From the NCBI GenBank assembly GCA_951406725.2, contig OX597815.1, positions 82,398,001 to 82,462,000 of the forward strand: DNA of 64,000 bases, read 5' to 3'. The notes beneath the pieces were generated by a model, which worked only from the letters and a program-made list of their open reading frames with translations, did not search any database and was not told where the DNA came from. Shown here one piece after another: positions 61,060-63,357 of this stretch; position 1 is the stretch's first letter, and each line of letters starts with the position of its first letter. The stretch is from Octopus vulgaris. Taxonomy: Eukaryota. The position numbers and the translations under genes are program-made.

Positions 61060-61280
61060 ATATTTTTTATTCGTTTAGTTGTTTCAGTCATTTGACTGCG
61101 GCCATGCTGGAACATCACCTTGAAGCGTTTTCAGCCGAACAAATCAACCCCAGGACTTATTTCTTAAGTCTAGCACTTTTCGATTGTCCTTTTTGCCGAA
61201 CAACTAAGTTACAGGGACGTGAAATCACCACCAACGGTCGCCAAGTGGTGAAGTGGTGATGGGGAGGATAAGCACAGACT
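61060..61280 (-). mobile_element. SINE family 2 3' half
   Basis: gtttcagtcatttgactgcggccatgctggaaca..taagttacagggacgt. Confidence 0.8.
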
Positions 61281-61811
61281 CACACACAGACACACATTTA
61301 TATATATATATACATATACATACATACATACATACATGCATATATATATATATATATATATATATAGCAATTAAGGACAACTACTTAATAAGGAAAACTT
61401 AACAAGAAATTGTCAGGTAGATAGCGTAAGAACCTCATAAGAGAAAAAATTTCGAAAATAATTATTTCTTATTGAACATATTAATTTATATATAGAGGGC
61501 ATTATATACTTGCCAGAAGGCATTATACATACATGCCAAACGCTAAGAGGGACAATTAGTCATTTCTACCAAAAATATTACTAATCCCACCGAATGCAAT
61601 TTCTTGTTAAGTTTTCCTTATTAAGTAGTTGTCCTTAATTGCTAAATTTTTATTCCGAAAAAACTTTTCCTCTCCCGAAATGCAATTCGTTAAAGTTTGC
61701 CATTTGACAGGATGTAATATATGTAAACTCACCCATGTGCTTCGTTGAATGTTGAACAGTTAGCTGATCGACTTAAGCGGGGCAGGGTCGTTGTTTATTT
61801 ATAATGCATTC

Positions 61812-61859
61812 AGGCCTGCTGATGAGTACGTAAGTATGAAATCACTGTGATACAGGTCT
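61812..61859 (+). ncRNA. Type I hammerhead ribozyme, copy 1
   Basis: AGGCCTG-CTGATGA-GTAC gtaa GTAT-GAAA-TCAC t GTGA-TA-CAGGTCT: all core nucleotides present and three helices pair. Confidence 0.85.
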
Positions 61860-62291
61860 ATATATTTTTAAATGTCTTACTTTGAAGAATTGCATTCGGT
61901 GGGATTAGTAATATTTTTGGTAGAAATGACTAATTGTCCCTCTTAGCGTTTGGCATGTATGTATAATGCCTTCTGGCAAGTATATAATGCCCTCTATATA
62001 TAAATTAATATGTTCAATAAGAAATAATTATTTTCGAAATTTTTTCTCTTATGAGGTTCTTACGCTATCTACCTGACAATTTCTTGTTAAGTTTTCCTTA
62101 TTAAGTAGTTGTCCTTAATTGCTAAATTTTTATTCCGAAAAAACTTTTCCTCTCCCGAAATGCAATTCGTTAAAGTTTGCCATTTGACAGGATGTAATAT
62201 ATGTAAACTCACCCATGTGCTTCGTTGAATGTTGAACAGTTAGCTGATCGACTTAAGCGGGGCAGGGTCGTTGTTTATTTATAATGCATTC

Positions 62292-62339
62292 AGGCCTGCT
62301 GATGAGTACGTAAGTATGAAATCACTGTGATACAGGTCT
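62292..62339 (+). ncRNA. Type I hammerhead ribozyme, copy 2
   Basis: Identical to copy 1. Confidence 0.85.
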
Positions 62340-62769
62340 ATATATTTTTAAATGTCTTACTTTGAAGAATTGCATTCGGTGGGATTAGTAATATTTTTGG
62401 TAGAAATGACTAATTGTCCCTCTTAGCGTTTGGCATGTATGTATAATGCCTTCTGGCAAGTATATAATGCCCTCTCTATATAAATTAATATATATATATA
62501 TATATATATATTTTATATTTTTTCTCTTATGAGGTTCTTACGCTATCTACCTGACAATTTCTTGTTAAGTTTTCCTTATTAAGTAGTTGTCCTTAATTGC
62601 TAAATTTTTATTCCGAAAAAACTTTTCCTCTCCCGAAATGCAATTCGTTAAAGTTTGCCATTTGACAGGATGTAATATATGTAAACTCACCCATGTGCTT
62701 CGTTGAATGTTGAACAGTTAGCTGATCGACTTAAGCGGGGCAGGGTCGTTGTTTATTTATAATGCATTC

Positions 62770-62817
62770 AGGCCTGCTGATGAGTACGTAAGTATGAAAT
62801 CACTGTGATACAGGTCT
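62770..62817 (+). ncRNA. Type I hammerhead ribozyme, copy 3
   Basis: Identical to copy 1. Confidence 0.85.
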
Positions 62818-62961
62818 ATATATTTTTAAATGTCTTACTTTGAAGAATTGCATTCGGTGGGATTAGTAATATTTTTGGTAGAAATGACTAATTGTCCCTC
62901 TTAGCGTTTGGCATGTATGTATAATGCCTTCTGGCAAGTATATAATGCCCTCTATATATAA

Positions 62962-63007
<46 letters not shown>

Positions 63008-63014
63008 TGTATAT

Positions 63015-63357
63015 ACTAGCACTATGACCCGGCAACGCTGGGTCATAGTGCTAGTGCATGAATATACAGCTGCGTGCGTACGCACATACACGCGCGTCCT
63101 GTCCAAATCTCCGACCAATCACGTACAGCCAGCTGGCATTCAATTAACGTATCAAGTTTCAGGTATTTTGATTGGGTTTTGGATAGAAAATTCACAAAAA
63201 AGTCACTTCTATTGATTTTTTTAATGGCTTTGCGAGGTGAATGGGGAAATGTAAAGATGTGCACGACCACCCTTGGACGGTTTTGAATGCGAGCCCTCTA
63301 ACTGAAAAATTCTGGATTTGTATTAAGGATACACACACAGACAGACATTTTACCGTT

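Follow-up and report, generated by a model that had tools for sequence, protein, structure and literature searches.

How does a short repeat that encodes no protein come to lie in tandem, with a hammerhead ribozyme (HHR) in every unit, at many places in an octopus genome? The window analysed here, a stretch of 64,000 nucleotides of Octopus vulgaris DNA, raises this question close to its end, where TRF places a tandem array at 61597-62998 (period 478, 2.9 copies, 98% matches). The original prediction saw in this array a non-LTR retrozyme whose monomer RNA could be circularized and re-inserted by a Penelope reverse transcriptase (RT).

The insertion in the window

An identical type I HHR of 48 nt occurs three times on the forward strand, at 61812-61859, 62292-62339 and 62770-62817, with predicted cleavage after A61852, A62332 and A62810, respectively, and the stems and core that had been written out for it are present at all three places. 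With unit position 1 set at window position 61853, the base 3' of the first predicted cut, these cuts bound two forward-strand units of 480 nt (61853-62332) and 478 nt (62333-62810). The two are 97% alike, and alignment of the units bears out the sizes first given for them. The retrozyme unit is a short, low-GC tandem repeat, dispersed over many loci; its longest ATG frame is 36 amino acids, and it has no protein coding and no LTR layout.

The extent initially proposed, 61597-62964, holds for the array but not for the insertion as a whole, which is larger (61367-62963) and includes an inverted left arm that had been missed. This arm (61367-61601, 235 bp, reverse strand) lies directly left of the array, comprises unit 36-270 and matches unit 36-281 at 98.8%. 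The right arm (61597-62963, forward strand) comprises unit 225-480, two full units and unit 1 to ~150, and the arms are joined at a microhomology of 5 bp (61597-61601). Both outer ends run into TA repeats, a (TA)n target run at 61340-61366 on the left and an AT/(TA)n target run at 62953-63004 on the right, of which the first ~11 nt also match the unit. In the family at large, outward arm ends fall either at unit ~142-153 (site A) or at unit ~270-275 (site B), and inner ends are scattered. At this locus (L069) the left arm ends outward at site B, coinciding with a match to the B-end pattern, and the right arm at site A, between 62952 and 62963.

The right arm also contains both sites internally, A at 61994 and B at 62122, within a structured domain of the forward strand (61905-62125). 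The consensus fold of this domain across 12 subfamily sequences has 36 pairs, 6 of which are changed on both sides, and we predict that it is an RT-binding region. The 478-nt unit, which had been put forward as a second released RNA, carries a private TA-run replacement just after site A that is found in 1 of 186 internal A-site regions; it is therefore a local change or a polishing error, and not a second RNA species of the family.

Other repeats lie nearby. A SINE-like repeat of very high copy number (extreme contig depth) at 61065-61240 adjoins the left side of the insertion, and a high-copy repeat at 63015-63330, which may be Helitron-like, has a hairpin of ~40 bp at its start, directly after the TA run. 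Elsewhere in the window, a 317-bp repeat at 25245-25853 (two copies, 85% matches) is unrelated to the retrozyme unit.

Conservation and fold of the hammerhead

In the genome (G000), the 41-nt HHR core has 330 exact matches, against 0 for a reversed control, and a pattern of core plus stem III finds 2,078 motifs, against 0 in the control. The 480-nt monomer is predicted to fold with its two ends, 5' and 3', held together by stem I, at z = -6.8 relative to shuffled sequences for the forward strand and z = -1.9 for the reverse strand. The 330 core matches and the strength of this fold together indicate that the motif is not a product of chance.

The Rfam search that had been suggested as a check gave nothing for the HHR at gathering level in the window, the miRNA matches being microsatellite noise. 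No family of the hammerhead clan CL00010 reaches its gathering cut-off at this HHR, and the best match on 111 bases is Hammerhead_HH9, which at 16.5 bits (E = 0.067) falls well short of the 52 required. As Rfam does not call the HHR, covariation was used as the test. Among 20 mutually related sequences, chosen from 38 distinct ones to span subfamilies, 95.7% of cells are paired and 8 of the 10 pairs in stems I and II are changed on both sides; the invariance of stem III in this set is uninformative, since stem III was imposed by the search pattern. As the 20 sequences are not independent, comparison with their shuffled versions does not amount to a probability. The HHR is thus conserved with compensatory changes across subfamilies, a pattern that suggests selection.

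It had also been argued that a near-palindromic stem III with a 1-nt loop marks the HHR as one that cleaves as a dimer. Such a loop cannot close, and in the monomer form helix III has 4 pairs and a 3-nt CUG loop. The bases flanking the loop are C and G in 2,078 of the 2,344 motifs that a loosened pattern finds in G000; among the first 100 motifs listed, the loosened pattern adds 10, and in 7 of these 10 the flanking bases can pair. Helix III is weak, but differs from that of dimer-type HHRs, which is 1-2 bp long (PMC4209133) with a small palindromic loop. The case for a dimer requirement is weakened by this greater length, and near-palindromy holds for any hairpin. Predicted energies are -0.3 kcal/mol for the stem III hairpin and -10.1 kcal/mol for the two-molecule duplex, and in the monomer the active fold is 3 kcal/mol less stable than the predicted minimum, which is inactive. 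The duplex energy and the flanking bases favor a capacity of the HHR to dimerize, as distinct from a requirement, and cleavage as a dimer is plausible. Evidence from frog retrozymes points the other way, only 1 of 9 dimers having cleaved in vitro (10.64898/2026.07.22.740005).

Related and unrelated HHR-bearing repeats were also encountered. Older sister subfamilies, about 65-90% alike (L040:1100-2100, L198-L227 and L236-L239), have a longer stem II and likewise a two-armed layout with A and B ends, and one of them has a perfectly palindromic stem III. A second set, apparently unrelated and with other stem III loops, is found at L228, L229, L231, L232, L233 and L235, with repetition after about 270 bp in L229 and a period of 594 bp in L228.

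A young family dispersed in the genome

The identification as a non-LTR retrozyme is upheld. Its recent activity is supported by identical units on contigs C2, C6 and C19, the 480-nt unit being 100% identical at C6 and C19. The proposed copy-number check, a DNA search of G000 in which 39 of 1,012 candidates were scored, revealed a dispersed young family on at least 20 contigs. We regard the element as almost certainly a non-LTR retrozyme. The loci fetched for analysis were those 39, together with 21 from the list of exact HHR matches and 20 from the list of B ends.

With AT-rich columns masked, the arms of one locus differ by 0.51%, compared with 1.41% to other loci, and are identical in 24 of 44 cases (p = 3e-5); for full units the difference is 0.10% inside a locus and 1.35% from one locus to another. 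Sequence divergence thus argues for arms of one locus sharing one template variant. At L044, L055 and L134 the arms differ by 2-4%. Long arrays contain interspersed variants (L063, L090), which points to later exchange as a further influence on how many units an array has and how uniform they are.

Two loci deserve separate mention. At G000:C1:64639650-64655254 (L090-L091), an arm of about 32 units (15 kb) stands opposite an arm of 0.5 kb, making this a candidate for a source locus or for a later local expansion. At L032 (G000:C19:68616800-68617950), about 31 bp of unique flank is repeated in inverted orientation across the insertion.

Every insertion with both ends classed combines one A end and one B end

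Most of the fetched loci consist of two arms placed back to back. Of 79 loci with an arm, both ends could be classed in 42, and all 42 combine an A end with a B end, as L063 and L131 do; 13 further loci are two-armed with an unclassed end, and in the remaining 24 one arm is seen. A search of G000 with the terminal patterns, which is independent of the choice of loci, found 296 B ends and 227 A ends. Among the 68 A and 100 B ends listed, which span C1 to C5:94.5 Mb, all 36 outward-facing neighbor pairs within 20 kb are A plus B, with no AA or BB pair (P about 1e-11 if ends were independent); one further neighbor pair faces the same way.

The insertion target is (TA)n. A target duplication containing C or G, pure TA runs not being informative, was seen at 2 of 49 loci, and at L060 a direct duplication of 14 bp is as staggered nicks would leave. 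The junctions between arms (n = 55; arm ends compiled by hand) show microhomology in 26 cases, an insert in 23, of which a few large ones are alignment breaks in older copies, and a blunt join in 6. Five inner ends (L034, L042, L044, L058 and L064) lie at unit 93-96, the 5' edge of the best-conserved stem, which is possibly an RT stop or a joining hot spot.

Penelope-like elements in the same genome

G000 contains families of Penelope-like elements (PLEs) with intact, near-identical frames of 775, 781 and 1312 amino acids. We assigned the clade names Neptune-type, Naiad-like and Poseidon-like to PLEs presumptively, from motifs. The 775-amino acid frame matches RVT_1 and GIY-YIG and is identical in 91 of 91 scored matches; this very young family (e.g., L101 and L118-L119, C3:5854060-5862730) has a unit of 4,270 bp, a 30-nt tail and a minimal hammerhead-like motif with the core variant CCGAAGA. 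The 1312-amino acid family (L261-L275) is likewise very young, with a hammerhead-like motif before the ORF, a 57-nt tail and a long Asn-rich insert of a kind also described in rotifer PLEs (PMC3846280). Its frame has no Pfam match, and we call it a PLE from its RT and GIY-YIG-like motifs and its layout.

All three families insert in (TA)n, and the distance between their two ends is about 30, 37 and 57 nt, respectively. Wherever both ends of an inverted pair could be seen, one was A and the other B, in 5/5 (775 amino acids), 1/1 (781) and 7/7 (1312) cases, or 13/13, although among the last seven one has a tail deletion and one is interrupted by N; in two more of the fetched pairs a single terminal end is visible. 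Retrozyme insertions thus agree with the PLEs of G000 in target, two-armed layout and A/B rule, and they carry the signature of PLE-mobilized sequences, namely an inverted 5'-truncated arm, a tail at one end and a microsatellite target. The Penelope link of the original prediction is supported on these grounds, and the retrozyme is very probably mobilized by a PLE.

Linkage to a PLE ORF with RT and GIY-YIG had been suggested as a check, and no fetched insertion has such an ORF inside it. In BLASTN, the unit matched nothing but AT-rich noise or neighboring retrozyme copies at 30 loci of the 775-amino acid family, 30 GIY-YIG loci, 25 Naiad-like loci and a further 45 PLE loci. Local alignment of the unit to 31 pLTR ends gave one z of 2.6 and otherwise at most 1.2, and a covariance model of the A/B domain run on 12 PLE loci gave a best E of 0.11. 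Thus, the PLE families sampled, which represent a minor fraction of the 28,990 candidates, showed no pLTR sequence or structure in common with the retrozyme. At 12 HHR loci with other stem II/III forms, no HHR-linked PLE frame was found. A likeness of the retrozyme to the end of the 781-amino acid family, noted by eye, was lost on shuffling.

Template and mechanism of insertion

The locus is one insertion, with two arms that end at A and B in (TA)n, and we consider it probable that these were written by a PLE that primed on both strands of the cut target, probably from circular RNA. Read-through transcripts would cleave themselves, aided by pairing of neighboring HHRs, and a host ligase would close the 480-nt monomer. 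A PLE protein, probably a dimer, would then make staggered nicks in the two strands of (TA)n, and one cDNA would be primed at A and the other at B, a two-site priming in which we have good confidence. Each RT would continue round the template for a length that differs between events, so producing tandem units, until the two cDNA 3' ends anneal through microhomology and copy each other, which would amount to second-strand synthesis. More tentatively, and with somewhat less than even odds, every Penelope-type insertion may be made by an asymmetric RT dimer whose subunits have to take different start sites on one RNA; the retrozyme circle would then mimic this two-site platform purely through its structure, have a tail four times as long as is usual and be copied by double rolling-circle reverse transcription.

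The circular template is suggested by the behavior of the arms at the predicted cleavage site. In loci partly selected for HHR presence, arms cross this site intact 196 times, and arm ends do not pile up there, with at most 1 of 134 inner ends within 3 nt. As the HHR appears to be kept by selection and the RT is not stopped at the cut, cleavage followed by ligation of the monomer is the simplest reading of the sequences. Circles are formed by other animal retrozymes (PMC7229834), circularization of the 480-nt monomer is plausible, and we lean toward the circle as the main template. In RNA data, for which 14 of 24 runs were taken as RNA by guess and which consist of contigs only, so that circles cannot be revealed, one contig from X17, 515 nt long, runs round the entire unit, a pattern that a circle and a tandem repeat would both produce.

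Two-site priming would also hold if the template were an uncut linear multimer transcribed from existing arrays, with the HHR acting elsewhere and no circle formed. Homogeneous source arrays of up to about 32 units do exist, uncut RNA is the dominant substrate of an anole PLE in vitro (PMC11167929), and the arm lengths of an identical trio of loci (L031, L032 and L069) fit linear copying. Both inner ends lie within 25 nt of each other at 14 of 55 loci (5.9 expected, p = 0.002), which fits a common 5' end, and 7 inner ends lie at unit 5-14 (about 3 expected), so some templates could be linear. However, some of the coinciding ends are several laps apart (L057), the monomer folds with its ends paired, and the HHR is conserved with compensatory changes, yet ends at the cleavage site are not piled up. 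We judge an exclusively linear template to be unlikely.

A more distant alternative is single priming, with the second arm made by fold-back self-priming or a template jump and a shorter A end cut later by the endonuclease at the TA-rich A site. Self-priming has been suggested in rotifer PLEs (PMC3846280), resolution by the endonuclease has been put forward to account for the tail (PMC8557442), and a short TA run does follow site A. The loci in which each arm is shorter than one unit are informative here: in 7 of 20 the A arm is contained, or nearly so, in the B arm, as single priming would allow, but in the other 13 each arm holds at least 9 nt private to it, so that neither can be a fold-back copy of the other, and at three short-arm loci the arms share no sequence at all. 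As both genomic ends moreover match the RT start sites of the anole PLE (PMC11167929), single priming seems highly improbable. Finally, the tandem units, inverted arms, TA flanks and some unequal exchange in long arrays could also suggest a satellite that spread through recombination, a foldback DNA transposon or an artefact of assembly. These readings can be set aside almost entirely given unlike outer ends, random inner ends, a covarying HHR, a strong fold on one strand only, copies on at least 20 contigs and the same layout at dozens of loci with different flanks.

Relation to known elements

PLEs are already known to have an inverted arm, an optional tail and two RT start sites. The locus is a real, young retrozyme of a known class, and its insertions record a strict two-site, two-strand rule that is common to PLEs. 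Like the animal non-LTR retrozymes described from coral, mussel and axolotl (PMC7229834) and from vertebrates (10.64898/2026.07.22.740005), it has non-coding tandem units of low GC content that each carry a single type I HHR, a dispersed distribution, a strongly self-paired monomer and PLEs in the same genome. Its unit of 480 nt is above the 170-400 nt of the RNAs in the former report and inside the range of 51-972 bp in the latter. Two-armed insertions with fixed, unlike ends are found here, and no such description was found for animal retrozymes in the available portions of these two reports. A pLTR sequence link, for which we found no case, is given for 24 of 57 frog families (10.64898/2026.07.22.740005).

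Similar to EN+ PLEs as described (PMC8557442; PMC3846280), the retrozyme has a head-to-head inverted arm, partial tandems, a tail at one end, a microsatellite target and microhomology junctions. In contrast to them it has no ORF, its arms can each hold several units, and its tail measures about 120-128 nt, where theirs is optional and 30-40 bp long. The one-end tail, termed "often" present or "optional" in these accounts, is strict here (36/36 for the retrozyme, 13/13 for PLEs).

For the anole Poseidon element PAc, work in vitro describes two internal RT starts downstream of the HHR and nicking and extension of both strands at an AT-rich target, with which, as far as genomic copies can tell, the retrozyme agrees; PAc is also predicted to dimerize (PMC11167929). 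HHR mutants of PAc insert normally, cleavage not being needed, and its choice of start site is alike on both strands (PMC11167929); in contrast, the genomic copies described here imply a different site for each strand in every single event.

Comparison with a different class of element is also instructive. In L1 twin priming, cDNA is primed on both target strands and the inverted product is joined by microhomology, but the second primer is used in only a minority of events and anneals at internal positions that vary. The retrozyme, in contrast, has fixed positions for both starts and normally has two arms.

The words hammerhead, retrozyme and ribozyme are absent from the main text of an octopus repeat annotation (PMC13282606), and a literature search restricted largely to the main text of open-access papers found no published cephalopod retrozyme and no statement of a strict one-A-one-B rule. 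The origin of the inverted repeats and one-sided tail of PLEs has been named as an open task (PMC8557442), and the case for the enzyme behind the movement of animal retrozymes has been built only on co-occurrence and on similarity to pLTRs (PMC7229834; 10.64898/2026.07.22.740005). The retrozyme and three autonomous families of one genome share a countable rule, one A and one B end per insertion, and this insertion scar ties retrozymes to the Penelope machinery. The rule predicts a simple outcome in the existing in vitro PLE system, for which a 480-nt non-coding RNA with two mapped, predicted start sites would be a compact test substrate.
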